Part shown: positions 3,001 to 56,185 of the stretch, piece after piece
Layout: every line of letters starts with the position of its first letter
How positions within the stretch are numbered: the first letter of the stretch is position 1
Origin: Mayamaea pseudoterrestris
Taxonomy: Eukaryota
Direction of reading: 5' to 3'
DNA length: 64,000 bases
NCBI GenBank assembly: GCA_027923505.1
Contig: BROI01000033.1
Location: 186,001-250,000 of the forward strand
The notes under the pieces: generated by a model
What the model saw: the letters and a program-made list of their open reading frames with translations, nothing else
Databases searched by the model: none
What the model was told of the DNA's origin: nothing
Position numbers and translations under genes: made by a program

Positions 3001-6000
3001 ATCAGGGGACGGGGCATTGTAGTGGTATGATTCCATAATTTGCGGTGTTGGCCACACCCATTTTGCAGATGGTGTAGGCCTCCAGGCAGTCCGTTTTGTA
3101 CCATGTCAGCCCATCCTCATGTCAATGGCACACCCTGGACATGTTTTGCCTGACTCATTGGGTTGTTGGGTGGCCAGGGCACGGGGCATTGTAGTGGTAT
3201 GATTCCATAATTTGCGGTGTTGGCCACACCCATTTTGCAGATGGTGTAGGCCTCCAGGCAGTCCGTTTTGCACCATTTCAGCCCATCCTCATGTCAATGG
3301 CACACCCTGGACATGTTTTGCCTGACTCATTGGGTTGTTGGGTGGCCAGGGCATGGGGCATTGTAGTGGTATGATTCCATAATTTGGGGTGTTGGCCACA
3401 CCCATCTTGTAGACCATTCCATGCTGTAGGCCTCCAGGCAGTCCGTTTTGTACCATGTCAGACCATCCTCATGTCAATGGCACACCCTGGACATGTTTTG
3501 CATGACTCATTGGGTTGTTGGGTGATCAGGGGACGGGGCATTGTAGTGGTATGATTCCATAATTTGCGGTGTTGGCCACACCCATTTTGCAGATGGTGTA
3601 GGCCTCCAGGCAATCCGTTTTGCACCATTTCAGCCCATCCTCATGTCAATGGCACACCCTGGACATGTTTTGCCTGACTCATTGGGTTGTTGGGTGGCCA
3701 GGGCATGGGGCATTGTAGTGGTATGATTCCATAATTTGGGGTGTTGGCCACACCCATCTTGTAGACCATTCCATGCTGTAGGCCTCCAGGCAGTCCGTTT
3801 TGTACCATGTCAGACCATCCTCATGTCAATGGCACACCCTGGACATGTTTTGCATGACTCATTGGGTTGTTGGGTGATCAGGGGCCGGGGCATTGTAGTG
3901 GTATGATTCCATAATTTGCGGTGTTGGCCACACCCATTTTGCAGATGGTGTAGGCCTCCAGGCAGTCCGTTTTGCACCATTTCAGCCCATCCTCATGTCA
4001 ATGGCACACCCTGGACATGTTTTGCCTGACTCATTGGGTTGTTGGGTGGCCAGGGCATGGGGCATTGTAGTGGTATGATTCCATAATTTGGGGTGTTGGC
4101 CACACCCATCTTGTAGACCATTCCATGCTGTAGGCCTCCAGGCAGTCCGTTTTGTACCATGTCAGACCATCCTCATGTCAATGGCACACCCTGGACATGT
4201 TTTGCATGACTCATTGGGTTGTTGGGTGATCAGGGGACGGGGCATTGTAGTGGTATGATTCCATAATTTGCGGTGTTGGCCACACCCATTTTGCAGATGG
4301 TGTAGGCCTCCAGGCAGTCCGTTTTGCACCATTTCAGCCCATCCTCATGTCAATGGCACACCCTGGACATGTTTTGCCTGACTCATTGGGTTGTTGGGTG
4401 GCCAGGGCATGGGGCATTGTAGTGGTATGATTCCATAATTTGGGGTGTTGGCCACACCCATCTTGTAGACCATTCCATGCTGTAGGCCTCCAGGCAGTCC
4501 GTTTTGTACCATGTCAGACCATCCTCATGTCAATGGCACACCCTGGACATGTTTTGCATGACTCATTGGGTTGTTGGGTGATCAGGGGACGGGGCATTGT
4601 AGTGGTATGATTCCATAATTTGCGGTGTTGGCCACACCCATTTTGCAGATGGTGTAGGCCTCCAGGCAGTCCGTTTTGCACCATTTCAGCCCATCCTCAT
4701 GTCAATGGCACACCCTGGACATGTTTTGCCTGACTCATTGGGTTGTTGGGTGGCCAGGGCATGGGGCATTGTAGTGGTATGATTCCATAATTTGGGGTGT
4801 TGGCCACACCCATCTTGTAGACCATTCCATGCTGTAGGCCTCCAGGCAGTCCGTTTTGTACCATGTCAGACCATCCTCATGTCAATGGCACACCCTGGAC
4901 ATGTTTTGCATGACTCATTGGGTTGTTGGGTGATCAGGGGACGGGGCATTGTAGTGGTATGATTCCATAATTTGCGGTGTTGGCCACACCCATTTTGCAG
5001 ATGGTGTAGGCCTCCAGGCAGTCCGTTTTGCACCATTTCAGCCCATCCTCATGTCAATGGCACACCCTGGACATGTTTTGCCTGACTCATTGGGTTGTTG
5101 GGTGGCCAGGGCATGGGGCATTGTAGTGGTATGATTCCATAATTTGGGGTGTTGGCCACACCCATCTTGTAGACCATTCCATGCTGTAGGCCTCCAGGCA
5201 GTCCGTTTTGTACCATGTCAGACCATCCTCATGTCAATGGCACACCCTGGACATGTTTTGCATGACTCATTGGGTTGTTGGGTGATCAGGGGACGGGGCA
5301 TTGTAGTGGTATGATTCCATAATTTGCGGTGTTGGCCACACCCATTTTGCAGATGGTGTAGGCCTCCAGGCAGTCCGTTTTGCACCATTTCAGCCCATCC
5401 TCATGTCAATGGCACACCCTGGACATGTTTTGCCTGACTCATTGGGTTGTTGGGTGGCCAGGGCATGGGGCATTGTAGTGGTATGATTCCATAATTTGGG
5501 GTGTTGGCCACACCCATCTTGTAGACCATTCCATGCTGTAGGCCTCCAGGCAGTCCGTTTTGTACCATGTCAGACCATCCTCATGTCAATGGCACACCCT
5601 GGACATGTTTTGCATGACTCATTGGGTTGTTGGGTGATCAGGGGACGGGGCATTGTAGTGGTATGATTCCATAATTTGCGGTGTTGGCCACACCCATTTT
5701 GCAGATGGTGTAGGCCTCCAGGCAGTCCGTTTTGCACCATTTCAGCCCATCCTCATGTCAATGGCACACCCTGGACATGTTTTGCCTGACTCATTGGGTT
5801 GTTGGGTGGCCAGGGCATGGGGCATTGTAGTGGTATGATTCCATAATTTGGGGTGTTGGCCACACCCATCTTGTAGACCATTCCATGCTGTAGGCCTCCA
5901 GGCAGTCCGTTTTGTACCATGTCAGACCATCCTCATGTCAATGGCACACCCTGGACATGTTTTGCATGACTCATTGGGTTGTTGGGTGATCAGGGGACGG

Positions 6001-9000
6001 GGCATTGTAGTGGTATGATTCCATAATTTGCGGTGTTGGCCACACCCATTTTGCAGATGGTGTAGGCCTCCAGGCAGTCCGTTTTGCACCATTTCAGCCC
6101 ATCCTCATGTCAATGGCACACCCTGGACATGTTTTGCCTGACTCATTGGGTTGTTGGGTGGCCAGGGCATGGGGCATTGTAGTGGTATGATTCCATAATT
6201 TGGGGTGTTGGCCACACCCATCTTGTAGACCATTCCATGCTGTAGGCCTCCAGGCAGTCCGTTTTGTACCATGTCAGACCATCCTCATGTCAATGGCACA
6301 CCCTGGACATGTTTTGCATGACTCATTGGGTTGTTGGGTGATCAGGGACGGGGCATTGTAGTGGTATGATTCCATAATTTGCGGTGTTGGCCACACCCAT
6401 TTTGCAGATGGTGTAGGCCTCCAGGCAGTCCGTTTTGCACCATTTCAGCCCATCCTCATGTCAATGGCACACCCTGGACATGTTTTGCCTGACTCATTGG
6501 GTTGTTGGGTGGCCAGGGCATGGGGCATTGTAGTGGTATGATTCCATAATTTGGGGTGTTGGCCACACCCATCTTGTAGACCATTCCATGCTGTTGGCCT
6601 CAGGCAGTCCGTTTTGTACCATGTCAGACCATCCTCATGTCTATGGCACACCCTGGACATGTTTTGCATGACTCATTGGGTTGTTGGGTGATCAGGGGAC
6701 GGGGCATTGTAGTGGTATGATTCCATAATTTGCGGTGTTGGCCACACCCATTTTGCAGATGGTGTAGGCCTCCAGGCAGTCCGTTTTGCACCATTTCAGC
6801 CCATCCTCATGTCAATGGCACACCCTGGACATGTTTTGCCTGACTCATTGGGTTGTTGGGTGGCCAGGGCATGGGGCATTGTAGTGGTATGATTCCATAA
6901 TTTGGGGTGTTGGCCACACCCATCTTGTAGACCATTCCATGCTGTAGGCCTCCAGGCAGTCCGTTTTGTACCATGTCAGACCATCCTCATGTCAATGGCA
7001 CACCCTGGACATGTTTTGCATGACTCATTGGGTTGTTGGGTGATCAGGGGGCGGGGGAGGCATTGTAGTGGTATGATTCCATAATTTGCGGTGTTGGCCA
7101 CACCCATTTTGCAGATGGTGTAGGCCTCCAGGCAGTCCGTTTTGCACCATTTCAGCCCATCCTCATGTCAATGGCACACCCTGGACATGTTTTGCCTGAC
7201 TCATTGGGTTGTTGGGTGGCCAGGGCATGGGGCATTGTAGTGGTATGATTCCATAATTTGGGGTGTTGGCCACACCCATCTTGTAGACCATTCCATGCTG
7301 TAGGCCTCCAGGCAGTCCGTGTTTTGTACCATGTCAGACCATCCTCATGTCAATGGCACACCCTGGACATGTTTTGCATGACTCATTGGGTTGTTGGGTG
7401 ATCAGGGGACGGGGCATTGTAGTGGTATGATTCCATAATTTGCGGTGTTGGCCACACCCATTTTGCAGATGGTGTAGGCCTCCAGGCAGTCCGTTTTGCA
7501 CCATTTCAGCCCATCCTCATGTCAATGGCACACCCTGGACATGTTTTGCCTGACTCATTGGGTTGTTGGGTGGCCAGGGCATGGGGCATTGTAGTGGTAT
7601 GATTCCATAATTTGGGGTGTTGGCCACACCCATCTTGTAGACCATTCCATGCTGTAGGCCTCCAGGCAGTCCGTTTTGTACCATGTCAGACCATCCTCAT
7701 GTCAATGGCACACCCTGGACATGTTTTGCATGACTCATTGGGTTGTTGGGTGATCAGGGGACGGGGCATTGTAGTGGTATGATTCCATAATTTGCGGTGT
7801 TGGCCACACCCATTTTGCAGATGGTGTAGGCCTCCAGGCAGTCCGTTTTGCACCATTTCAGCCCATCCTCATGTCAATGGCACACCCTGGACATGTTTTG
7901 CCTGACTCATTGGGTTGTTGGGTGGCCAGGGCATGGGGCATTGTAGTGGTATGATTCCATAATTTGGGGTGTTGGCCACACCCATCTTGTAGACCATTCC
8001 ATGCTGTAGGCCTCCAGGCAGTCCGTTTTGTACCATGTCAGACCATCCTCATGTCAATGGCACACCCTGGACATGTTTTGCATGACTCATTGGGTTGTTG
8101 GGTGATCAGGGGACGGGGCATTGTAGTGGTATGATTCCATAATTTGCGGTGTTGGCCACACCCATTTTGCAGATGGTGTAGGCCTCCAGGCAGTCCGTTT
8201 TGCACCATTTCAGCCCATCCTCATGTCAATGGCACACCCTGGACATGTTTTGCCTGACTCATTGGGTTGTTGGGTGGCCAGGGCATGGGGCATTGTAGTG
8301 GTATGATTCCATAATTTGGGGTGTTGGCCACACCCATCTTGTAGACCATTCCATGCTGTAGGCCTCCAGGCAGTCCGTTTTGTACCATGTCAGACCATCC
8401 TCATGTCAATGGCACACCCTGGACATGTTTTGCATGACTCATTGGGTTGTTGGGTGATCAGGGGACGGGGCATTGTAGTGGTATGATTCCATAATTTGCG
8501 GTGTTGGCCACACCCATTTTGCAGATGGTGTAGGCCTCCAGGCAGTCCGTTTTGCACCATTTCAGCCCATCCTCATGTCAATGGCACACCCTGGACATGT
8601 TTTGCCTGACTCATTGGGTTGTTGGGTGGCCAGGGCATGGGGCATTGTAGTGGTATGATTCCATAATTTGGGGTGTTGGCCACACCCATCTTGTAGACCA
8701 TTCCATGCTGTAGGCCTCCAGGCAGTCCGTTTTGTACCATGTCAGACCATCCTCATGTCAATGGCACACCCTGGACATGTTTTGCATGACTCATTGGGTT
8801 GTTGGGTGATCAGGGGACGGGGCAGGCATTGTAGTGGTATGATTCCATAATTTGCGGTGTTGGCCACACCCATTTTGCAGATGGTGTAGGCCTCCAGGCA
8901 GTCCGTTTTGCACCATTTCAGCCCATCCTCATGTCAATGGCACACCCTGGACATGTTTTGCCTGACTCATTGGGTTGTTGGGTGGCCAGGGCATGGGGCA

Positions 9001-38057: not shown

Positions 38058-40469
38058 ATGATCCCACGAAGAATCGCTTGCTTGCTTTCGCTGCTGCCAG
38101 CGGCGTTGGCGTTTGTGTCGCCGCTGCAGCAGCCGGCCCTCCTGTCGAAGCGCTCGTCGTCTCTGCAATCGGCCGTCTTGGACGAGCCAACGACCAAAGC
38201 ATCAGATGCGACAGCTACAACCAACATTCGGTAAGCAAACTGTTATTGTATGAGTGAAGGAATAGTTGCGAGAGAGAGATTTTCAGTGGGAGACGACGAC
38301 TGCGAGCTTTGATTCCCATCTTCTTGACTCTCGCGCGCACCTTTCTGTCTTGTCTCGGCAACTGAATGAAGAATAATTGAAAGCAATAAAAAGGACTACA
38401 TTGAGAGATAGGACGCGGTTTTTGAAAGTTCGGTGTTACTCGGGGTCTCTTTCGCGTTCCGCTCTTATCCACTTTTCCTCATTCGCTCACTCACTCACTC
38501 ACTCTCTCCATCCATCCATCCATCCATCCATCTTTCCACAGCAACTTGGCTGTGATTGCTCATGTCGATCATGGCAAAACGACTCTAGTCGATGCTTTGA
38601 TCAAACAATCTGGAGTCTTTCGTGATGAAGCGCAGTCCGACGAGGCTGGAACCTGCATCATGGACAGTGAAGATCAGGAACGCGAGCGAGGCATCACCAT
38701 TCTCGCCAAGAACCTTGCCGTGGTCTACGATGGAACCAAATTCAACATTTTGGACACTCCTGGTCACGCAGACTTTGGCGGGGAGGTCGAACGTGTGCTT
38801 AACATGGCCGATGGTGTTCTACTCGTTGTTGATAGCGTCGAGGGACCCAAGCCGCAGACGCGATTCGTCTTGGACAAGGCGCTCAAGAAGGGCTTGACGG
38901 CGCTGGTCGTTGTCAACAAGATTGACCGACCAGCCGCACGACCTGATTACGTTGTCGATAAGGTATTTGATTTGTTTGTGGAACTCGGAGCGACAGATGA
39001 ACAAACGGATTTCAAAGTTGTTTACGCATCGGGTCTCTTGGGCAAGGCCGGTTACACGCCAGACTCGTTGGAAGATTCCATGAAGCCACTCTTTGAAACG
39101 GCCCTCAAGACAATCCCCAGTCCAAAAGTCGATCGAACGGAACCGGAGGCGTTGCAGGCACTCGTCAGTAACATTGATTTCGATAACTTCAAGGGCAAGC
39201 TTGGTATTGCGAGAATCAGCAACGGATCCATTCGCAAGGGACAAGCCGTATCCCTCGTGCATCCAGATAAGCCAAAAAAGACTGGTCGGCTTGGTAATTT
39301 GTTCGTCTTTGACAATCTTGGCAAGCGCGAAGTCGAGGAGGCGCATGCTGGCGAAATTATCATGTTTGCCGGTCTCAATCCAGAGATTGGTGATACGCTT
39401 GTTACCAACGAGAATGGTGGAGCGAATGCTGCCGAACCAATGACGCCCATTGCCATTGAACAACCGACGGTGCGCATGACAATTGGCGTTAACAAGTCGC
39501 CCCTGGCTGGTCGAGAAGGAAAGCTACTGACGAGTCGCATGATTCGTGATCGCTTGTTCAAGGAACTTGATCGCAACGTGGCGCTGCAAGTGGAAGAAAC
39601 GGATTCAGCGGATCGGTACCAAGTGAGCGGACGTGGACAATTGCACTTGACCGTTTTGGTTGAAACCATGCGTCGCGAAGGATTCGAATTGGAGGTTGGG
39701 CCGCCGACTGTAATTTACAAGGAGAACCCAGAGACAGGCAAAATGGAGGAACCATGGGAAGCACTTGAGATTCGCGTACCGGAAGAATACAGTGGAGGCG
39801 TTATTGACCTATTGAACTTGCGCAAGGGCGAGCTTCAAGACATGGGTATTGAGGAAGGCGATGGAATGACAGTCGTCAAGTATTTGGTGCCAACGCGAGG
39901 CATGCTTGGATTGAGATCTTCCTTGCTGACTGCTACCCGTGGAACTGCCATTATTGATAGCGTCTTTGACTCGTATCGACCCAAGATTGCTGGTGAAATT
40001 CAAGCGCGAGACAAAGGCTCACGTAAGTACACCTTGGTGTATGCATCTGCTCGTGTGGACGTTATTGCTTTGGGTTGTACATATATTAAACTTGGCTGAC
40101 ACGTATGCGTTTGCGTCTCATCATTCAGTATTGGCTTATGCGGACGGGCAAATCACCACATTCGGCATTGAAGGCGCTCAAGAGCGCGGAAAGATGTTTG
40201 CGTCGCCTGGCGAAGAATGCTACAAGGGCATGATTGTTGGTATTCATCAAAGACCTGGAGATTTGGAGGTTAATGTTTGCAAAACCAAACAGTTGACAAA
40301 TATGCGTTCTGCCAACAAGGGAATTACGACCGGAATTGTCGCTCCTATTCAAATGTCTCTGGATGCCTGCGTCGAGTACCTGGCAGCTGATGAGATTCTT
40401 GAAGTGACACCAAGTTTGTTCCGCATGTCCAAGAACCCAGCCATGGCCGGAAAGAAGTCCAAGAAGTAA
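38058..40469 (+). CDS. typA: Plastid-targeted translational GTPase TypA/BipA, 3 exons
   Basis: Exons 38058-38230, 38542-40022 and 40129-40469. Splicing restores [16 protein letters not shown] and KGSLLA. Motifs [35 protein letters not shown] and KQLTNMRS. Presequence ...PAALA-FVSP resembles a heterokont bipartite signal. Confidence 0.96.
38486..38531. repeat. Compound microsatellite (CACT)n(CCAT)n in typA intron 1
   Basis: CTCACTCACTCACTCACTCTCTCCATCCATCCATCCATCCATCCAT lies just before the acceptor site. Confidence 0.85.
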
Positions 40470-40697: not shown

Positions 40698-43497
40698 CTA
40701 TGACTTTCCGTTCCATCTGTTCCGACCGAAATTGCACAGCCGACGAACAAGACCTTGACTTGTATCGTCTGGGTCCTTATTGTCGTGGATGACATCGCCG
40801 CTGATAATCGGCTCGGTCGGAGACAAGGTTTGTCCAATGCTGTACGGCTCAATGGACGCAATTAAGGGGAACTCGACTGGACCTGCGTTCACCACGCGGA
40901 CAACGTTACCGTTACCGGGCGTTTCGATGACCATATACAAAGGTCGTGCCGATCCATCTTCTGAGTAAACATGAACAGATTGTTTTGAATTTGTTGGACC
41001 TTGCATCAACTCTATCGTTGCGTTAATCGGAAGGCCGTCTGTCCGCAAAAGCACCTGGACACTTTCGACCGACGCATCAAATGCATACGTCTTGAGAGCG
41101 CCGCCGTGAACCGTCTTTGCGCCGGTCTCAAAGTTAGACGACGCAGCCGACGGGAGTGCAGTGGCGACTCGTTCGTCTTCCTCCGCAACAATGTTGGCCG
41201 CCAATGGAAATTCGAGCAGACCAGAATTGCGAACCGAGACAGTATTGGGACCAATTGGTGTTTCAAAGACGGCGGAGAACGGCCGCTCATGTCCGTTTTC
41301 GCAGTATACTCTCATTTTGAACGGAACGTCATCAGGGCCACGCCAAAGATTCAACTCCGCATTCAAGGGTCGACCGCCAGTCTTTAACGCCACGTGAATA
41401 CGCTCAATCGCGTGATTTTTGAACGACCAAGTTTTTAGAGAGCCGCCTTGTACGGGCGACGCCTCGGTCATGTCCGAAATAAGTGCTGCAGGAGCCTTGT
41501 GAGCTCGAGTCACTTCTCTTTCTAATAAAGGGCGGACTTGTTTTCGCTCGTGGTAGTTTTTGGCAAGCGTCTCAATGGCTTGCGAGCGACGGACACTAGC
41601 CTCATGCGCCCGCTTGGCTCTATCCGCATTCCCTTGCAGCAGAGAATTAAAGCGGTCCTCGAAGCGTCGTCGCTGAGTCTGTAAAAATGCGAGAAGGAAA
41701 AAATGAGTGAGCGTGGAAAACTCGTTGCACGATCAAAGGTGCACATATACTCACAGTTTGCCTCGATGCTTCCATTTCCCGCGCCATATTGTGATCGTTG
41801 GTGGAGATTGTCACATCGTAATCACCGCTACTCGAGGATGCAATCACGTCGCTTCGCTGGTCTTCTCGCATGGGAATGTTTCCAAAGACTTCGGTCCGAG
41901 GTATGTAGCGAATGCCGGCGCTGTCCGACAATTCCGGCGCTCCGCCACCGCCATAGTACGATGACTGTTTAGTTCGTTGCAATGGTGCCGATGACATTGT
42001 TCGAACATCATTTCGAGGCGGTGCTCGTGTATCACCTGGCATGGTCCGTGCCATTGGAGCAGGTTTGGTCGGTTTCACAAGTCTCGTTGCTTCAATAATC
42101 GGCTCGATTGCAATATCTCCGTCATCCGTTTCAATATACGGCAATGGCATAGGCGGAGCAGGAAACATGCCCGTGACTGGTGCCTGTCGTGAGTACTTGA
42201 CTGCCTTTACTGCGAGTTCACTCTTTTCGGGTGCCTTGTACGGCATGGGAATGGGTGGAGCTGGAAATTTATTAACACTTGAAACTCTTGTACTCGTCGT
42301 TGGAGCTTTATATTGTGTGTCAAGTCTTTTAGATTGGAATGGTACTGGCCGGGCTGGGAAAGATGTTGCCGACGAAACTGGAATATCCTTAACGGAGTTA
42401 AACTTGATGCTATTGCCGTCGGCCAAAGAAGATTTCTTTTCACCATTCGAATTTTTAGACAGTGCTTGGTAAGTGGCGTCTCCTTCAGAAAGACGCGATA
42501 CGCCATAATCGTCAATAGGTTTGCTCACGGGCTGTGGCGAATTTGACTTTGATGCAATGCTTCGTGACAAGTTTTGTTGCAGCGACTCGAAAGATTGTCG
42601 TGGCGCACTGCTGCTGCTAGCTGACGAAAATTTCGTCCGCGACTTTGCTTCTGATTCACTTTTGCTAGCTGCTTGAGAACGCGACGGTGTTTCCGTCGAA
42701 GGTCGAGTTGACTGTGTCGGTTCCGCTTGCTGCTTCACCCCAGCGAAAGTCGTTGGTTCGTGCGTTTGATGTTTCTCCTGCGGTGTCGCCGTCGAAAGCC
42801 CCGAAAGAAAGCCATTGAATCCACTATCCGCGACAGCCTTGTACTTTGTTCCGCCACTGGCTGGGCCATATGACTTCTTTGGAGTTGCAGTTGCAGCAGC
42901 ACTTGAACCGGATGTACCTGACGATGACATGCTGCTAAAGTAATCTCCGGCTGAACCAATGGAAGCTGCTGCAGCGTTGGAGCTTTTAAAACCAGTCTCC
43001 TTTGGCCGATTTCGAGCTGTAGCAGATGATTCGCTAAACCTTGACGATCCTGTCATACCAGTAAAAGAGTCTCCAGCAGGCGATGCATCGGTTGCTGTGG
43101 CTCTCGACTCCAGTTGCGGGCGCTGCACCCTTGATGTCGACGATGACGAAATGTCTCTGGCATCCAGTGAGTACTTTCTAGGATCCATCTTCGCCGCAGT
43201 CCTTTTGGTCTTGTCATATGGATTCTTGAGAATCTCGTCGTCGTCAAGCGGTCCCAAGTTCTCGTACATGCTCCAAAAGTCCGTCAGGTCGGATGTACCG
43301 GTAGAGGATGCAGGAGTCGCAATCGGCCTTGCTGTCGACGGAGGAGCAAGCGTCGCGGTTGCCTTGGTAGCTGTAGACGAAGACGACTTCTGCACTTGCT
43401 GGAGTTGATCCAAGTAGCTTCCAAAGGCTTCGCTTGTTCGAATGGCCCCGCTGGCAAGCAGCAAAAGTTGCAGCATGTTGCTAGAGACGCGCGTCAT
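40698..43497 (-). CDS. PyShell: Spliced ~907-aa protein: plastid-type presequence, ~600-aa Ser/Thr/Ala/Pro-rich disordered region, C-terminal PyShell-like two-repeat domain
   Basis: Exon 1 is 43497-41755 and exon 2 is 41678-40698, separated by a 76-bp phase-0 intron (GTGAGT...TTTTTACAG, 41754-41679). Exon 2 reads without stops into the 40698..41513 ORF. The C-terminus has two homologous halves (VQGGSLKTWSF..GRPLNAELNLWRGPD..RPFSAVFETP..EFPL and VHGGALKTYAF..GLPINATIELMQGPT..RPLYMVIETP..EFPL) that match my recollection of PyShell CR1/CR2. N-terminus MLQLLLLASGAIRTSEA-FG. Confidence 0.8.
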
Positions 43498-43796
43498 GGT
43501 GGAAAGGATTGTGATATGCTGGCTGCAGTAGTAGTGGACGAGACGCAGCAAGATAAATGCAAGCGACTGTCTATCGTCTGCTTGGTGTCACGCTCGAGGA
43601 AAGGCTTGCGTCTTGTAATGTTCTGTGGCAGCAGCTCGCCTTCTTCTAAGGCGGTGTCGACTGCGTTTCTCGCGGCAATCGAATTTTGGGTGCGCCCCTT
43701 GCGAGGTGGCATCAGGAACGGCGAAAGTTGACCGACGTGGCCAAATCTGATATGACCGTGACAGTATCTTTCAAAGGTACTTAAATGATTGACATT

Positions 43797-44239
43797 TAAG
43801 ACTGGCCGGATAGAAATCCTGCGGATGACGTCATCAAGCGCCGGACGGACGTCACGAGAAAACTTCAAATCAAGTTCGCGTCGCCCTTTTTCACCAACGC
43901 GCAAAGCAGCGACAGTGCAACAAAGCTTCTACATCAATCTAAAGACAACCAACTAGCAATTTATAAAGAAAGATGCTGGCGCAGACTGGTCCCGTCGCTT
44001 GAGTATAGATTCTTTGGGGATGTTGAGGTGCGGAACGATTTTCGCTCAAGCGCGCAAGTGCGACATCCATCGGTACTCGACTGCGTCTTGGGATTGCTCG
44101 CGCACCTCCTCTCCGATTTTTACTCGTTGGTAACCGTTGGAAAGCCCGTCGAGTCGTGAATGAAATGTGATGCATAACTAAAAAACGTCAAAATGGTCAT
44201 CGTGACGTCATCCGCAGGATTTCTATCCGGCCAGTCTTA
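43797..44239. mobile_element. MITE-like non-autonomous DNA transposon, ~440 bp, perfect terminal inverted repeats, probable TA target-site duplication
   Basis: TAAGACTGGCCGGATAGAAATCCTGCGGATGACGTCA (43797-43833) is the exact reverse complement of 44203-44239 (37 bp including the outer TA). No credible internal gene. Confidence 0.85.
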
Positions 44240-49800: not shown

Positions 49801-52800
49801 TTATTTTACAAAGTCAAGTTTAGTGAAGCGAAAGGAGCCAGTCTGTATTCCAACGTACGGTGCAGGAGTGCCACCAGAGCAAATCCCTTTTGCAAAGTCA
49901 GGGGTAGTAGCGACAAGTTGGCCGTTGACGTACCACTCCGCTCCTCGATTCGCACAGCGAATAATCGTCTTATCGCTTCGTCGAATCAATGTAGTGGTTT
50001 TAATCCTTTCAGTGTTTTCTGTCGAGTAAACTGTAACCTCCACTGGTTGCTCAGGTCCGACAAATAAAGACCCTGCTATGTAGCCCTTATCCACAACAAT
50101 GTTCCCCAAGAAGAAATCAGTGTCATACATAGTCCATCCAAAATCGCCTGCAGCGTTTGGTTGCAGCTCAATCTCAAACGACTCAACGTTGAGAGTATGG
50201 CCTCCAAGACGCTGCAGCACTATCAGCTTGTCGTCCATGGCATGCGTGTTTTCAATCTCTGTGTGAAGTGAATAATCAACGAGTGTAGCACCCTGTAAGT
50301 CCTCGTCAACGACGTAGGGACAGAAACCTGACAGCTCATCGCTTCTGTCATGCTCAGGATCATTATTCTCCGTTTCTGTAAAGTCATCGTCGAGGCGAGA
50401 AAAGTCATTAACGTCAAGCTGAGGTGCATCAGACGTGGCCGAAGAATCAAACGCTTCGTAAATCGGCGTGTCGTAGTAATCGTTGAGAAACGGTGGCTCG
50501 TATGTTGGTGACGAGTCAATATTACCGTAGCTTTCTAGTGGCGGCCCAAAATGTTCGGAATGTTGGGGTTCGAACATTGCTGCTTCTCCGGAGTCACTGT
50601 AGCTCGTTGGAGCTGGATAGTTTGAAGTAGGATATGGTGGCTCGAACGAATTTGCCTCAAATGCGCTGTAACTTGCAAGTGGCGGCCCGATTGTATCAAA
50701 ATAAGGTGGTCCAGAGGACGAAACTGGCCCATTGAAATCACCAACGCTAGCCGATTGTTGATTGTTATGCAGAAAAAGCATTTCTTCGTCGTCGGCAGGC
50801 TCAGTAATCATGTGATTGTCGTCGTTGGCTACGAATGGCCGCATCAACTCTTCATGTTCGAAAACCTCTGGCATCGCGCTAGCACGATAAGGTCGACTGA
50901 AAGTAGCTGCCTCTGTGACAGATCCATGATGACCTGCTGACGAAGGAGCTGATGGGGCCCACAGCGAGCCAAGGTATGCGTCATCTTTCACTGCCCTGTA
51001 CGAAGCGCCGCCCGGTGCGTACGATTTTCTTGAACCAGGAGAACTTTTTGCTGCATTTGAAGGAGAAGATAATCTCATTTGTGGTGCTTCAGCATCCTCT
51101 CGTTCTGCATTTGCTTGAAATTTCGGCGGCGACATCGCAGATGACGACAGTCCATCAGGAAACACAGCCTCCTTGTTTTGTTTGTATTGGCTGTCACCGG
51201 GAGCGTATATTTCCGAAGAGCCCGAATTATTGGAAGTTCCGCTAGGTGCCGCAGCAAGGCTCGCAAGATAGCCAGTGTCTTTCGTCTGTGCGTACTTCAT
51301 GCCAAATGGAGCGTGTGAATTTATCCGCCGCGCCACCGACGACCCGGTCGAAAGTGAACTGAGATAATCTCCGGACGATGTGGTGGTTTCGGTTATTCTC
51401 TTTTGTTTATCGTAAGTATCTGATTCGGAGGAACTTGACGATGCAATGTCGACTTGAGGTGATCTTAACAAAGCACTAGTATAGCTATCGCCATGACTTG
51501 CCGAATTCTTCGATACAGACGAGCTGACATGACCCCCACGAGAAACGTCACTCAAAGGAACCGATGCAGACGATGAGAGTCCAGCGAGAAACCCCGTTTC
51601 CTCGACTCTTTTAAATTTAGCACCTCCAGGAGCAAATGACTGCTTCGGGGGTAAGCTTGCTGCCGACATTGAGCTTAAGTAATCACTTGTTGTTGCAGAT
51701 GAAGCACTTTGAGAGTTTATTGCTGAGTTGGCTTCTGTTGGAACAGACAAATACTCAGGCGCCGGAACAGATGTGGGCGACGACAAGCCTGCCAGAAATC
51801 CGGTGTCCCTGACTGGTTTATACTTGCCGCCACCACCAGGAGCAAATGATTGCTTTGGTGTTGACGCCGATCTTTCTTTCGTCATGGCACTTAAATAGTC
51901 GCTTGTCGAGACAGCACGAGACGATGAACTGGAGTCCGGGCTGCTTGGACGGTAAATGGGTACCTTTGTTGATGAAGCTGTCGCATAGCTCCGCGATATC
52001 GATGAATCAGATACTGCGAATTCCTTGGCTCGTTGAATATTGTGGTCTCCGCCACCAGGAGCATAAGACTGCTGTCGTGTCGTCGAATCAGCAATATTTT
52101 GGCGAGATACAGTGCTTAAATAGGATGCGGCTTTTGTTGAAACCGTCGCTTTTGATCCGTTATGATTTGGGCTTGGAACGTTCGATTCATGTATTGTCGG
52201 AGGTGCTGCTGCCGATGATAAACTGGCCAGGAAACCAGTCTCCTTTACCGGTTTGAACTTGCCGCCGCCAGGTGCATAAGACTGTTTCGTTGGCGTTCCT
52301 GATTTGTTGCTAGCCATGGCGCTCAAGTAGTCACTGCTTGACGAAGCTGCTGATACTCTTGCATTTTGACTTGATCGAAACGAGCCGTGATTTGACTCAG
52401 TTGACGGCTGGCTTGCCGTTGGAGCTGGCGAGTCGCTAGGCATTTGATTCGATGATGCTTCTGACAAACCTGCTAGAAATCCGGTTTCTTTTACAGGTTT
52501 CCACTTGCCTCCGCCACCAGGGGCAAAGGACTGCCTGATCTTTGAACCAGGTGAGGAAGATTGAACAGCAGCAGCTCCTTGCGCATCTGTTGATGAGAAA
52601 TTGCTTACACCGTCGTGTGAGAGAACTGCTGAATCTCGTTCATTGACCAGATCATGAGCAGGTGGCGTTGATGATAAGCCTGCCAAGAATCCTGTCGCCT
52701 TAACTGGCATGAACCGTTTGCCTCCTCCGGGAGCAAAAGATTGTTTCGTTGTAAAAGTAGGGCTGGATGAAGTAGATTTCGTGTCGTGCTCTTTATTGGC

Positions 52801-55716
52801 GGACTCGGACGTCAAGCCGATTGATCGAGGTAAACTTGATGCGTATGACCCAGACTCCTTAATAGGCTTCCACGTGCCGCCGCCGCCAGGAGCGTAATTT
52901 TGCTTTGGAACATTTGCCGCAACGCTCGACGTACCAGGCACGGAACTCTGAAAATCACCCGCTGATGAAGGAGCAGCGTCTGCCAAGCCTTTTGGTTGAT
53001 AGTCACTGCTTTGTGGCTGACTGCGTGACCGAAAGTTGGGATCTGAAACTGCCGGATAGCTGGGTGCAGCCGTAGATGCTGCCGATGACAAACCGGCAAG
53101 AACCCCAGACTCCTTGACAGGTTTCCACTTGCCACCGCCACCAGGAGCAAATGATTGCTTTGAACCCTTGAAAGCATCACCCGTTGCGCCAGACGATGAC
53201 ATGGAACTCAGGTAGTCGCCGGTGGATGCAGGAACTGCTTTGCTTATCAAACCGCTCCGTTGCGGCGGATCCAGTGAAGATTTAAGTTCTGGAGCAGCGC
53301 TATTTTCTGGATTCTGTGCTGAAGCAACCGAAGATAAGCCGGCAAGAAATCCAGACTCCTTGACAGGTTTCCACTTGCCACCGCCACCAGGAGCAAATGA
53401 TTGCTTTGAAACCTTGGAAGCATCACCCGTTGCGCCAGACGATGACATGGAACTCAGGTAGTCACCGGTGGATGCAGGAACTGCTGTGCTTAACAAACCG
53501 CTCCGTTGCGGCAAATCCGGTGAAGATTTAAGTTCTGGAGCAGCGCTATTTTCTGGTTTCGGGACAGAAGAAGCTGCGGACGATAAACCAGCAAGAAATC
53601 CAGACTCCTTGACAGGTTTCCATTTGCCACCGCCACCAGGAGCAAACGATTGTTTTGGAACCTTTGAAGAAACTGTCGCACCCGACATGGAACTCAAGTA
53701 GTCACCAGTTGATGCAGGAGCAGAGTTTGCCGAACCAATTGGTTGCGAAGGAGGGCTTGGCTCTGGAGCAGCGCTATAAATTGGCTTTGGAGTAGAAGAA
53801 GCTGTGGATGATAAACCTGCAAGAAATCCAGATTCCTTGACGGGATTCCACTTGCCGCTGCCACCAGGAGCAAACGACTGTTTCGGAGCCTTTGAAGAAC
53901 CTGTCGCACCCGACATGGAACTCAAGTAATCAATCGTTGATGCAGGAGCAGAGTTTGCCGAACCAATTGGTTGCGAAGGAGGGCTTGGTTCTGGAGCAGC
54001 GCTATAAACTGGTTTTGGAGTAGAAGAAGCTGTGGACGATAAACCGGCAAGAAACCCAGATTCCTTAACAGGTTTCCACTTGCCACCACCACCAGGAGCA
54101 AAGGACTGTTTCGACAACTTTGAAGAATCTGTTGCACCCGACATGGAACTCAAGTAGTCACCCGTCGATGCAGACGCAGCAGAGTTGGCTGCGCTACTCG
54201 TCTGATATGGGCTGTCGCTTTGCGGCAAGCTTGCAGGAACGCTTGGCCCACGAGCAGTTGGAGAAGCCGGCGCGCGATCATTAGACTCGTTGGACGATAA
54301 ATAGGCAAGGAATCCAGTCTCCTTGACGGGTTTCCACTTGCCACCAGGAGCGTACGACTGTTGTTTCGGAGCCTTTGAAGCTGACACACCCGACATGGCA
54401 CTTAAATAATCGCTCGTCGATGCGGCAGCTGTTGATTGTTGCGTGAATTCATTCGATTCGTCACGATCCGGCGACTTGTAGTAGCTCGGTGGTGCTGCAG
54501 GTGCAGATGAAGATTGGGGTGCAGCAGTGGCTTCTGTAATTGTATGCGAGGCTGACAGTCCCGCCAGAAATCCAGTCTCCTTGGCTTGCTTGAACTTGCT
54601 AGCGGGCGCGTACGATTTCTGCTTGCTGCCGCTGGCCGTTTGTCCCTTGGACATGCGACTCAAATAGTCCGTCGTTGACGCTGCAGCATTATCTGATGCT
54701 TGCTCTGAACTCGACGCAGCCGACTGCGACTTCCATTTAGTTGCTCCTCCTGGTGCGTAGGAGGACTGCTTGCTGGTGTCGCTCATCGTTTGCGACGACG
54801 AAGAAGACGACGTTGATCCCTTGGACATGCGAGTCAAGTAGTCACTCGTGGATGCAGCACCGTTGGATGATTCATCAACCGTCGCCGCATTTTTGGAATC
54901 AAGCGAGAGGGACCGAGACGACGACGATGATTTCCAACTGCCTGGAGAGTAGGATTTTTGATTGCTGCTGGTGGAACTTGTCGAAGACGCCATTCGACTC
55001 AAGTAGTCGCTCGTCGAAGCAGCAGGCGCAGAATTTACGTCGTGACTCGTCGCTTGCTGTTCGTTTCCAGTGCGAGCCGACTCGGACGAACCTGCCGACT
55101 GCTTCCAACTGCTACTAGCTCCTGATCCAGGAGCGTAGCTATTCTTGCTCTTGCTGCTGCTACCCGTTGCTCTTTCGGCGCTTGGTCCAGCGCTAGACAT
55201 GGACGACAAGTAGTCGGATGATGACGCAGCAGCTGTCGCTGTGGCTTTTGGTGCAGTCACTTTGGCATCCTTTGATTGAGAATTTGCCTTTGAACTCGTT
55301 CCATATGGAGCGTAGGAAACTTTCATTGTCGTCGTAGAGAGTTCTTGCTTGGACGAGGACGAAAGCGCCGACAAGTAGTCCATGGTTGATGCCGCTGCTG
55401 CTGTTGCTGCAGCTTCGTCTTTCGTCGCTGGCACTTCGGCGAATGAATGACGAGCCAATGGCAATCGTTCGTCGTCACGTTTCGAGCCGTCATGATGATG
55501 ATGCTGTGACTTGGAAGCGCCAGATGCAGCAGGAGGAGCAGGAGCAAACGACGACGATTGACTGCTGCTGCGGCTTGCACTCGATTCCAATTGATTCAAG
55601 TAAGAATTGGAACCAAAGGCTGCCGCAGCTTGCTCCGAAGGCTTGACTTGTAGACATGCGACTAGCAGAATGCATAGCCATTGCCTTGGTGACTTTGAAA
55701 GGACTGCTGCTGTCAT
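49801..55716 (-). CDS. ~1970-aa Ser/Ala-rich repeat protein with signal/plastid-type presequence, ~20 SYAPGG-KWKP-GFLAGLS repeats and a C-terminal beta-rich domain
   Basis: Uninterrupted 6-kb ORF with first ATG at 55716. Hydrophobic WLCILLVACL followed by AAAA-FG. Recurrent DYLSSMS and KQS(F/Y)APGGGGKWKPVKESGFLAGLSS; core units 228-246 bp. Confidence 0.92.
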   Translation of the reverse strand: MTAAVLSKSPRQWLCILLVACLQVKPSEQAAAAFGSNSYLNQLESSASRSSSQSSSFAPAPPAASGASKSQHHHHDGSKRDDERLPLARHSFAEVPATKDEAAATAAAASTMDYLSALSSSSKQELSTTTMKVSYAPYGTSSKANSQSKDAKVTAPKATATAAASSSDYLSSMSSAGPSAERATGSSSKSKNSYAPGSGASSSWKQSAGSSESARTGNEQQATSHDVNSAPAASTSDYLSRMASSTSSTSSNQKSYSPGSWKSSSSSRSLSLDSKNAATVDESSNGAASTSDYLTRMSKGSTSSSSSSQTMSDTSKQSSYAPGGATKWKSQSAASSSEQASDNAAASTTDYLSRMSKGQTASGSKQKSYAPASKFKQAKETGFLAGLSASHTITEATAAPQSSSAPAAPPSYYKSPDRDESNEFTQQSTAAASTSDYLSAMSGVSASKAPKQQSYAPGGKWKPVKETGFLAYLSSNESNDRAPASPTARGPSVPASLPQSDSPYQTSSAANSAASASTGDYLSSMSGATDSSKLSKQSFAPGGGGKWKPVKESGFLAGLSSTASSTPKPVYSAAPEPSPPSQPIGSANSAPASTIDYLSSMSGATGSSKAPKQSFAPGGSGKWNPVKESGFLAGLSSTASSTPKPIYSAAPEPSPPSQPIGSANSAPASTGDYLSSMSGATVSSKVPKQSFAPGGGGKWKPVKESGFLAGLSSAASSVPKPENSAAPELKSSPDLPQRSGLLSTAVPASTGDYLSSMSSSGATGDASKVSKQSFAPGGGGKWKPVKESGFLAGLSSVASAQNPENSAAPELKSSLDPPQRSGLISKAVPASTGDYLSSMSSSGATGDAFKGSKQSFAPGGGGKWKPVKESGVLAGLSSAASTAAPSYPAVSDPNFRSRSQPQSSDYQPKGLADAAPSSAGDFQSSVPGTSSVAANVPKQNYAPGGGGTWKPIKESGSYASSLPRSIGLTSESANKEHDTKSTSSSPTFTTKQSFAPGGGKRFMPVKATGFLAGLSSTPPAHDLVNERDSAVLSHDGVSNFSSTDAQGAAAVQSSSPGSKIRQSFAPGGGGKWKPVKETGFLAGLSEASSNQMPSDSPAPTASQPSTESNHGSFRSSQNARVSAASSSSDYLSAMASNKSGTPTKQSYAPGGGKFKPVKETGFLASLSSAAAPPTIHESNVPSPNHNGSKATVSTKAASYLSTVSRQNIADSTTRQQSYAPGGGDHNIQRAKEFAVSDSSISRSYATASSTKVPIYRPSSPDSSSSSRAVSTSDYLSAMTKERSASTPKQSFAPGGGGKYKPVRDTGFLAGLSSPTSVPAPEYLSVPTEANSAINSQSASSATTSDYLSSMSAASLPPKQSFAPGGAKFKRVEETGFLAGLSSSASVPLSDVSRGGHVSSSVSKNSASHGDSYTSALLRSPQVDIASSSSSESDTYDKQKRITETTTSSGDYLSSLSTGSSVARRINSHAPFGMKYAQTKDTGYLASLAAAPSGTSNNSGSSEIYAPGDSQYKQNKEAVFPDGLSSSAMSPPKFQANAEREDAEAPQMRLSSPSNAAKSSPGSRKSYAPGGASYRAVKDDAYLGSLWAPSAPSSAGHHGSVTEAATFSRPYRASAMPEVFEHEELMRPFVANDDNHMITEPADDEEMLFLHNNQQSASVGDFNGPVSSSGPPYFDTIGPPLASYSAFEANSFEPPYPTSNYPAPTSYSDSGEAAMFEPQHSEHFGPPLESYGNIDSSPTYEPPFLNDYYDTPIYEAFDSSATSDAPQLDVNDFSRLDDDFTETENNDPEHDRSDELSGFCPYVVDEDLQGATLVDYSLHTEIENTHAMDDKLIVLQRLGGHTLNVESFEIELQPNAAGDFGWTMYDTDFFLGNIVVDKGYIAGSLFVGPEQPVEVTVYSTENTERIKTTTLIRRSDKTIIRCANRGAEWYVNGQLVATTPDFAKGICSGGTPAPYVGIQTGSFRFTKLDFVK

Positions 55717-56185
55717 GATTTTGATGGCTGATTGGTTGGCGGCAGCTAGGGGTACAAGCACTGAATGTAAATCAATCAATCCAACAAGGACTTGAAACAG
55801 CAGTGATAAGAGTCTCCTCAAACCGATTATATATACAGTGAATGCGATAAGCTACCGGTAGTCGGATGATGGTCTTTTGATGGACGACTCGGTTGATGGA
55901 TCCAAATCCTAAAGGCCGAAAGCGTTTGCGGTCGTTGATCAAGGATGAGGTGCGGCGAGACGTTCATCGATGGTGGGACACGTCGATCACTCGTTTCGGC
56001 GAGCAAACACATCAACATGCCAACGGCTGCGACTGACGTATGCAGACACTGAGTGTCAAGCAGAGTGTACGTTGGTCAAAGTCGCAACGAGAATGGTGCA
56101 ATGTAAATACCAGTAGCTAACCTGTGACTATCTATTCAATTCTATTGCGCACATACGTCGCGCTTGATACTTTGGCAGTCAGCAT

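Follow-up and report, generated by a model that had tools for sequence, protein, structure and literature searches.

The 64,000-nt stretch of DNA analysed here (the window; contig BROI01000033.1 of the pennate diatom Mayamaea pseudoterrestris, positions 186,001 to 250,000) carries on its minus strand a real, apparently expressed two-exon nuclear gene whose 907-aa product joins a long N-terminal arm, predicted to be disordered, to a C-terminal 16-stranded beta-sandwich that is a bona fide PyShell domain. The protein is a predicted plastid-targeted member of the PyShell family, and its arm is under purifying selection, with conserved short motifs separated by variable spacers. This long-arm architecture is not unique to the 907-aa protein. 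We suggest, tentatively, that such a subunit may act as a tether anchored in the pyrenoid shell.

The domain family is already in Pfam, and the gene is already in NCBI as an unnamed hypothetical protein; the fusion was therefore not 'hidden', as a first-pass annotation made from the sequence alone had put it. Shell/PyShell proteins are portrayed as compact, with short disordered ends (Shimakawa preprint; Nam preprint 10.1101/2023.10.26.564148; PMC13655443; PMC13159521), and long-arm forms are not mentioned in the running text of the two founding preprints or in passages of two 2026 reviews, the figures and supplements with the Shell1-6 lengths being outside this scope. The first-pass annotation had considered the architecture undescribed, which agrees with that text; it is not a one-off, however, as a Mayamaea paralogue (P0143) and 21 long forms among 277 collected proteins attest. 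The architecture of the PyShell family is more varied than that of the compact forms studied so far.

Gene model and splicing

The coding region (40698..43497, minus strand) consists of exon 1 (41755..43497; 581 codons for the presequence, the disordered arm and the start of a long helix), a 76-nt GT..AG intron (41679..41754) and exon 2 (40698..41678; 326 aa plus the stop codon at 40698-40700, encoding the remainder of the helix, followed by the PyShell domain and a C-terminal tail). The earliest in-frame ATG is at 43497, with an in-frame stop 30 codons upstream and no ATG between the two. Exon 1 ends with base 41755 after 581 complete codons, and exon 2 resumes in frame at 41678; the intervening sequence (41754..41679) reads GTGAGT...TTTTTACAG and has a pyrimidine-rich stretch ending in CAG at 41679. 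The first-pass annotation had deduced this join, across a canonical 76-bp intron and into a protein of about 907 aa, from two minus-strand open reading frames (ORFs) of 634 and 271 aa. Both ORFs have the same lengths under translation table 11 (41647..43551, TTG start; 40698..41513, GTG start) and measure 616 and 257 aa with the standard code and ATG starts. The join is borne out by an identical NCBI protein, 'hypothetical protein MPSEU_001056900 [Mayamaea pseudoterrestris]' (907 aa; 100 % identity and coverage over both exons), and by spliced contigs.

Contigs of four public runs (X1-X4; one study, library type not on record) were mapped onto the locus. A 968-nt contig of X2 and a 965-nt contig of X4 each jump from 41678 to 41755, with CT..AC on the plus strand, so that the check for splicing across this junction found the intron skipped exactly in two of the four runs; one X3 contig is unspliced across 41679..41754. 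X2 and X4 are without cover over 43648-44000, which fits RNA, though an RNA origin cannot be shown. The intron has the same position relative to the helix motif in the relatives P0020, P0021 and P0281, which read into or out of it, and a tandem-repeat check of the gene's DNA found none.

Were the arm ORF and the PyShell ORF separate genes or products, the unspliced X3 contig would be accounted for, as would an internal ATG (M651) ahead of the domain. Such an artefact is hard to reconcile with contigs of two runs spliced exactly at GT..AG, with the identical NCBI model and with the orthologous arm of P0020, which ends at the same junction. Exon 2 by itself has no presequence, and a product started at M651 would likewise have none. 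A predicted helix (aa 568-621) runs through the exon junction (581/582), which, as far as the structural model goes, is a further argument for one protein. We give the artefact almost no credence, and we hold both the gene model and the PyShell family assignment to be very nearly certain.

A 72-aa upstream ORF lies in another frame (43494-43712, minus strand), and its TGA overlaps the main start codon (ATGA). At the 5′ side, contigs reach 43762 in X1 and X3, 43614 in X2 and 43556 in X4, which bears on whether this ORF is on the mRNA.

The PyShell domain, its helix and its tail

The domain (aa 653-863; 40833..41465, minus strand) comprises conserved region 1 (CR1; eight strands), a short helix (750-755) and conserved region 2 (CR2; eight strands). 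Against Pfam PF25192 (DiatomPyrShell), the exon-2 protein aligns with profile positions 5-209 of 209 at 263.7 bits (cut-off 27; E 1.2e-78), and it also matches PyShell1 of Thalassiosira pseudonana (TpPyShell1; PDB 8wqp), the only PyShell structure solved, at E 2.4e-74. A full-length AlphaFold2 (AF2) model, made from a 70-row alignment, has eight strands at 655-746, the helix at 750-755 and eight strands at 769-862, with predicted local distance difference test (pLDDT) values mostly of 86-96; this is the layout described for TpPyShell1, 8+8 strands with a connecting helix (Shimakawa preprint). The top Foldseek match of the model is 8wqp_A (E 9.2e-28, template modelling score (TM) 0.77 on the target, 53 % identity, root-mean-square deviation 3.2 over 219 columns), and the runner-up is more than 20 orders of magnitude weaker. 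The PyShell assignment, originally made from remembered motifs, thus stands on profile, structure match and AF2 fold alike.

The protein resembles TpPyShell1/Shell1 (8wqp) and PtPyShell1a/2a of Phaeodactylum tricornutum in Pfam family, in the 16-strand double beta-sheet with its order of CR1, short helix and CR2, in a stramenopile-type presequence, in a flexible N-terminal region that includes a helix ahead of the domain, and in a C-terminal tail. Unlike these described proteins, whose flexible N-termini are short (68 residues are unresolved in TpPyShell1), it has about 650 residues ahead of the domain, and it adds a long basic helix, seven clade-specific substitutions at conserved positions and a longer tail.

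The basic helix of about 85 aa, a putative stalk at aa 568-651 (41469..41796, minus strand; helices 568-621, 623-640 and 644-651), spans the exon junction. Its arginine content is 16.9 % in aa 582-652, and it holds an element, RFEDRFNSLL, common to relatives. In the general form R[FL]E[DQ]R[FL]N.L, 60-90 residues before the domain, this helical element is shared by medium-length paralogues and other long forms and is probably the counterpart of the second helix of TpPyShell1, which is described as poorly resolved.

Across 63 other PyShells, 81 columns show at least 90 % conservation, and the protein keeps the family residue at 70 of them. This, the high identity to a lattice-forming PyShell and the encapsulation of the pyrenoid by all six tagged T. 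pseudonana homologues (Nam preprint 10.1101/2023.10.26.564148) argue against a PyShell fold that is plastid-targeted and reused outside the pyrenoid shell for some other function. The localisation of the protein is predicted only and there are five paralogues in one genome, both of which would be compatible with such reuse, but we regard it as highly improbable.

Seven of the 11 deviations are common to the gene's own clade (P0021, P0022, P0025 and P0027): N698D, Q772H, R797L, R802T, N810T, V815S and E817H. The last five fall inside 21 residues of CR2 (aa 797-817; 40971..41033, minus strand) and include two that remove arginines; N698D and Q772H lie elsewhere in the domain. The C-terminal tail (aa 864-907; 40701..40832, minus strand; EPIISGD...DNKDPDD...RRLCNFGRNRWNGKS) is longer than in compact paralogues.

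These features could belong to a subunit that joins the lattice, uses its bulky arm and altered CR2 to limit or shape lattice growth, and binds no partner. Such a modulator might sit at edges, pyrenoid ends or thylakoid entry sites, marking a separate zone of the shell, as T. pseudonana Shell4 is reported to do. Clade-specific changes at positions conserved to at least 90 % (R797L, R802T, Q772H, E817H and others) point in this direction, as does a tail that is both longer and different, given that the tail of TpPyShell1 contacts the neighbouring monomer by entering a positively charged pocket (Shimakawa preprint). A purely steric role, however, leaves unexplained both the conserved, collinear motif islands of the arm in orthologue and paralogue and the repeats kept within a residue or two of their P0020 positions (see below). 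The domain is also 53 % identical to TpPyShell1, whereas Shell4 is reported at 34 % to Shell1, with Shell4 compared here by description and not as an orthologue. We therefore consider a lattice modulator unlikely.

Presequence

The N-terminus reads MTRVSSNMLQLLLLASGAIRTSEA followed by FGSY. By inspection, aa 1-24 (43426..43497, minus strand) form a signal peptide with a hydrophobic core, the small residues S and A at -3 and -1, and F at +1, a cleavage-type SEA-F site as claimed in the first-pass annotation; AF2 places a helix at aa 2-16. To the eye, this is the bipartite presequence of stramenopiles, a signal peptide followed by F at +1, and the same pattern is common to P0020, P0143 and P0281. 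The signal-peptide-plus-Phe rule of stramenopiles is a filter used in PyShell work (Shimakawa preprint). Directly behind the cut lies the motif FGSYLDQL (aa 25-32; 43402..43425, minus strand), which recurs in other PyShell N-terminal regions. Judged by its position in the sequence, it could belong to the transit peptide and be removed.

The disordered arm

Between presequence and stalk, the arm (aa 25-565; 41803..43425, minus strand) is rich in S, A, T and P (16.7 % S, 10.8 % A, 9.0 % T and 8.4 % P). In the AF2 model, pLDDT is below 50 for nearly all of residues 20-565, which are accordingly predicted to be disordered, and the PyShell fold is confined to the C-terminal part. The claim of a disordered S/T/A/P-rich arm of about 630 aa is upheld for disorder and composition and fails for length, which is about 540-580 aa depending on whether the helix is included. 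The arm matched no Pfam family and gave no usable match in a protein atlas.

The same arm is present in P0020 (588 aa), from a related organism, with 35.9 % identity over 513 aligned positions; BLAST gives E 2e-19 over the first 231 residues. The P0020 arm is collinear from the presequence to the last exon-1 residues and then continues into the presumed intron. Conserved islands follow one another in the order FGSYLD, SAGDY[FL]S.MS and PKKSYGP..GG.YK.VAD.GFNGFLSGLS, and then come three proline-rich repeats; VKYS.Q.PV, YIPR.E.FG and VIASS are further islands. The best conserved lies at aa 176-240 (42778..42972, minus strand; SAGDYFSSMS ... PKKSYGP ... YKAVADSGFNGFLSGLS) and is common to P0020 and, weakly, to the paralogue P0143. 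The proline-rich repeats (42136..42360, minus strand), FPARPVP (aa 380), FPAPPIP (411) and FPAPPMP (445), are spaced by 31-34 aa. These FPxPPxP repeats reach scores of 54 and 40, where 30 shuffles gave at most 36, and they lie no more than a residue or two from the corresponding positions in P0020. The arm thus combines intrinsic disorder with repeated short motifs in the manner of a linker, at a low valency of three repeats.

Constraint on the arm was estimated from the variants listed between contigs, 36 of the 61 in the coding region. In the arm, 15 are synonymous and 9 nonsynonymous over 419 and 1276 sites, respectively (ratio ~0.20), and in the helix, domain and tail, 10 are synonymous and 2 nonsynonymous (ratio ~0.06). 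The sole indel seen in more than one run, among the variants listed, is a 3-nt in-frame insertion behind 42114.

This insertion is GTC on the plus strand, occurs in X2 and X3 contigs and lies in an acidic stretch after the third proline-rich repeat. Many further single-base differences between contigs are consistent with alleles or strains. Indels of 1-2 nt at eight places (contig depth ~4-9) were set aside as most likely assembly errors because they are seen in X3 and in no other run.

An arm of this composition might also serve as a phospho-regulated dock for enzymes of the CO2-concentrating mechanism (CCM) or for assembly factors (carbonic anhydrase, Rubisco activase), in which case it would be a recruitment and regulation platform and not a structural tether. 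Disorder combined with 16.7 % Ser and 9.0 % Thr would suit such a role, and a review portrays the shell as an organisational hub with shell-interacting proteins (PMC13655443). However, nothing points to a client, the arm has no known docking motif, and stickers that recur at even spacing are more characteristic of multivalent linkers. We find a platform of this kind decidedly unlikely.

Relatives and other long forms

Mayamaea has at least five PyShell genes: the 907-aa gene, genes for 408, 345 and 329 aa, and MPSEU_000985900 (P0143, 1183 aa), so that two of these five paralogues are long. Four Mayamaea gene identifiers were searched for in two supplement files of the genome paper (PMC9724779), and none was found there. 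The closest relatives of exon 2 are P0022 (80 %), P0021 (77 %) and P0025 (58 %), which we take to be exon-2-only gene calls because they start in or just before the helix. In a 'quick' IQ-TREE tree of 47 PyShell domains, the 907-aa gene clusters with P0021, P0022, P0025 and P0027 (SH-like approximate likelihood ratio test (SH-aLRT) 98), and P0143 is sister to this clade (SH-aLRT 89, not starred). Nine proteins with N-terminal arms form a clade of their own (98) that consists exclusively of long forms. The N-arm label requires at least seven changes on the tree, three of them forced by starred branches; the number of long-arm origins is nevertheless uncertain because many 'compact' rows are truncated gene calls.

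P0143 has the same order of elements as the 907-aa protein, namely presequence, YLDQ motif, AGYL..S, PK..Y.P, NGFL..L, AxKYxxxAP, LExRL helix and domain. Unlike the 907-aa protein, it has an arm of 959 aa with six F[KRT]V[GN][ILV]R repeats in place of FPxPPxP, and most signature positions of its domain hold the canonical residue. BLAST of the arm against P0143 was not significant (E 0.48 and 2.5), and a hidden Markov model (HMM) of the arm, built from the 907-aa protein (P0003) and P0020, reached P0143 at E 0.17 only when run against 278 collected proteins. The mature arms of the two proteins do give a collinear local alignment, the score of which was reached by 1 of 500 shuffles.

Among the 277 domain-bearing proteins collected, a set biased because one search requested long proteins, the stretch ahead of the domain exceeds 300 aa in 21 cases and 500 aa in 13. 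Seventeen proteins longer than 572 aa contain the PyShell domain, and they comprise N-terminal arms, Ala/Glu/Gln-rich C-terminal arms and two tandem or chimeric models. P0019 (591 aa) is an N-arm form and a complete transcript ORF from an MMETSP sample with the taxon-id label 'Lepto...'. A scan of 1.84 billion representatives gave 1028 matches at E<=0.001, and in none of the best 150 was the arm the best-scoring stretch. In metagenomes, a scan with P0001 confirmed 0 of 58 matched stretches as relatives, and one with alignment A2 gave 77 loci of at most 62 % identity, a close orthologue not being among them.

A motif of the type [GS]Y[LI]xx[LI] lies behind the presequence in the 907-aa protein, P0020 and P0281; P0143 has the related SLYLDQI. 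The motif occurs once in some compact pennate PyShells and in up to 8-9 copies in the arms of P0010, P0013 and P0014. Altogether, 12 of 134 pre-domain regions held 41 such motifs where 1.0 would be expected, a contrast that overstates the evidence because the pattern was defined post hoc and the P0010, P0013 and P0014 copies are internal duplications.

P0010, P0011, P0013 and P0014, which belong to the all-long-N-arm clade of nine, have N-arms of 660-760 aa with 5-9 copies of GYLDSL/GYLGSL, partly in 61-aa tandem units. A different long form is seen in P0007, P0008, P0009, P0012, P0016 and P0018, where the domain lies near the N-terminus and is followed by an Ala/Glu/Gln-rich, probably helical C-terminal arm of 300-550 aa; P0018 additionally has a DnaJ domain. 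These C-arm forms (P0007 etc.) sit in the tree with haptophyte- and dictyochophyte-labelled rows. Among compact forms, the metagenome contig L004 carries two tandem PyShell genes (3483-4238 and 5986-6846), each starting with the LE.RL helix, and this pair resembles pairs in Phaeodactylum and Mayamaea (MPSEU_000154700/800).

A possible shell-anchored tether

How the shell is attached to the Rubisco matrix and to the traversing thylakoid, and how its two faces differ, are posed as open questions in the text of the founding papers. The flattened TpPyShell1 lattice is described as having nearly identical faces (Shimakawa preprint), and the adhesion of shell to matrix is left open in an account that also reports shell4 mutants with detached shells (Nam preprint 10.1101/2023.10.26.564148). 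Shell subunits with long, constrained, motif-bearing arms are direct candidates for the attachment link.

We propose that the PyShell domain of the 907-aa protein would co-assemble with compact paralogues in the shell lattice, that the basic helix would form a stalk holding the arm off the shell surface, and that the arm would extend from one shell face and serve as a multivalent tether, built of stickers and spacers, to an adjacent structure. The likeliest neighbour would be the Rubisco matrix, with the thylakoid that penetrates the pyrenoid or a second layer of shell as alternatives. A tether to the Rubisco matrix or the thylakoid had already been put forward in the first-pass annotation, and the arm makes it plausible: its short motifs are repeated and conserved, and purifying selection acts on it. 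As a partner, the Rubisco matrix is favoured because shell-matrix adhesion is unexplained in the text of the founding papers and shell4 mutants are reported to show detached shells. We put the likelihood of such a tether at slightly less than even.

Known systems offer partial parallels. Carboxysome scaffolds of the CsoS2/CcmM type follow the logic of a barrier part combined with a flexible matrix part. Similarly, the Chlamydomonas sheath-matrix adaptors SAGA1 and SAGA2 are described as having a barrier-binding part and a long, flexible matrix-binding part (PMC13159521), and the 907-aa protein would, overall, be an adaptor anchored in the shell that works as SAGA1/2 do at the starch sheath of Chlamydomonas. 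It differs from SAGA1/2 and from CsoS2/CcmM in its unrelated sequence and fold, and in that its barrier-binding part is itself a shell subunit. With the Rubisco linkers EPYC1, CsLinker and PYCO1, the arm shares disorder and short repeated stickers between spacers (PMC13655443). Unlike these free matrix proteins, however, it is fused to a shell subunit and contains none of their stickers, and its Rubisco binding is putative. A parallel within the family is Shell4 of T. pseudonana, a divergent paralogue that is proposed to favour contact between shell and Rubisco and to occupy a shell region of its own (Nam preprint 10.1101/2023.10.26.564148); we infer the same role for the 907-aa protein. Unlike Shell4, the 907-aa gene clusters with pennate paralogues of its own genome.

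A more specific form of the tether would make long-arm PyShells shell subunits with a built-in Rubisco linker, by which the matrix is stitched straight to the shell's inner side. Different lineages would each have joined a sticker-and-spacer array of their own to the lattice domain: FPxPPxP in the 907-aa protein, FKVGxR in P0143 and GYLDSL in the all-long-arm clade. If true, this would supply the missing shell-matrix glue of diatom pyrenoids and would give the shell an inside and an outside, unlike the symmetric TpPyShell1 lattice alone. We offer it as a speculative possibility that is, on balance, somewhat unlikely.

Several observations weigh against a tether. The stickers searched for, those of PYCO1 (KWSPRGGS and GTGYNP) and [DN]W[RK]xx[LIVA], which we take to be the Chlamydomonas Rubisco-binding pattern, are absent from the 907-aa protein and from 10 other long-arm proteins, even as the cores KWSP and GYNP, and no partner for the arm emerged from the analysis. 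AF2 docks no arm segment on the domain, with pLDDT below 50 throughout the arm, and the seven clade-specific domain substitutions, with two CR2 arginines lost, may mean altered lattice contacts or none. The YLDQL motif, at +2 from the signal-peptide cut, may be cleaved off together with the transit peptide. On the quantitative side, the motif statistics are post hoc, the repeats of P0010, P0013 and P0014 are internal duplications and not independent counts, and the arm variant counts come from 36 of 61 coding variants. The runs with a spliced contig have no library type on record, and pyrenoid localisation and assembly are predictions. A complex prediction that paired the arm island 172-242 with the protein's own helix and domain and with the domain of a compact paralogue (score 0.00, mark 0.34) speaks neither for nor against the tether.

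The arm motifs supply short peptides that can be tested for binding. An anchor-plus-tether subunit would also be useful in efforts to surround Rubisco condensates in plants with engineered protein barriers, a goal discussed in the review literature (PMC13655443).

Genomic neighbourhood

The other large ORFs within 24 kb of the gene belong to no pyrenoid-related family, and the locus is therefore not a CCM cluster, its neighbours being unrelated. One of them is a translational GTPase on the plus strand (38426-40469; GTP_EFTU, EF-G domain 2 and EFG_C; TypA/BipA-like) with an apparent intron near 40041-40099. The GTPase and PyShell genes converge, with about 230 nt between their stop codons. Further away, a 2016-aa open frame (49801-55851, minus strand) has as its sole Pfam match a calpain-13-like C-terminal EF-hand (E 8e-11).

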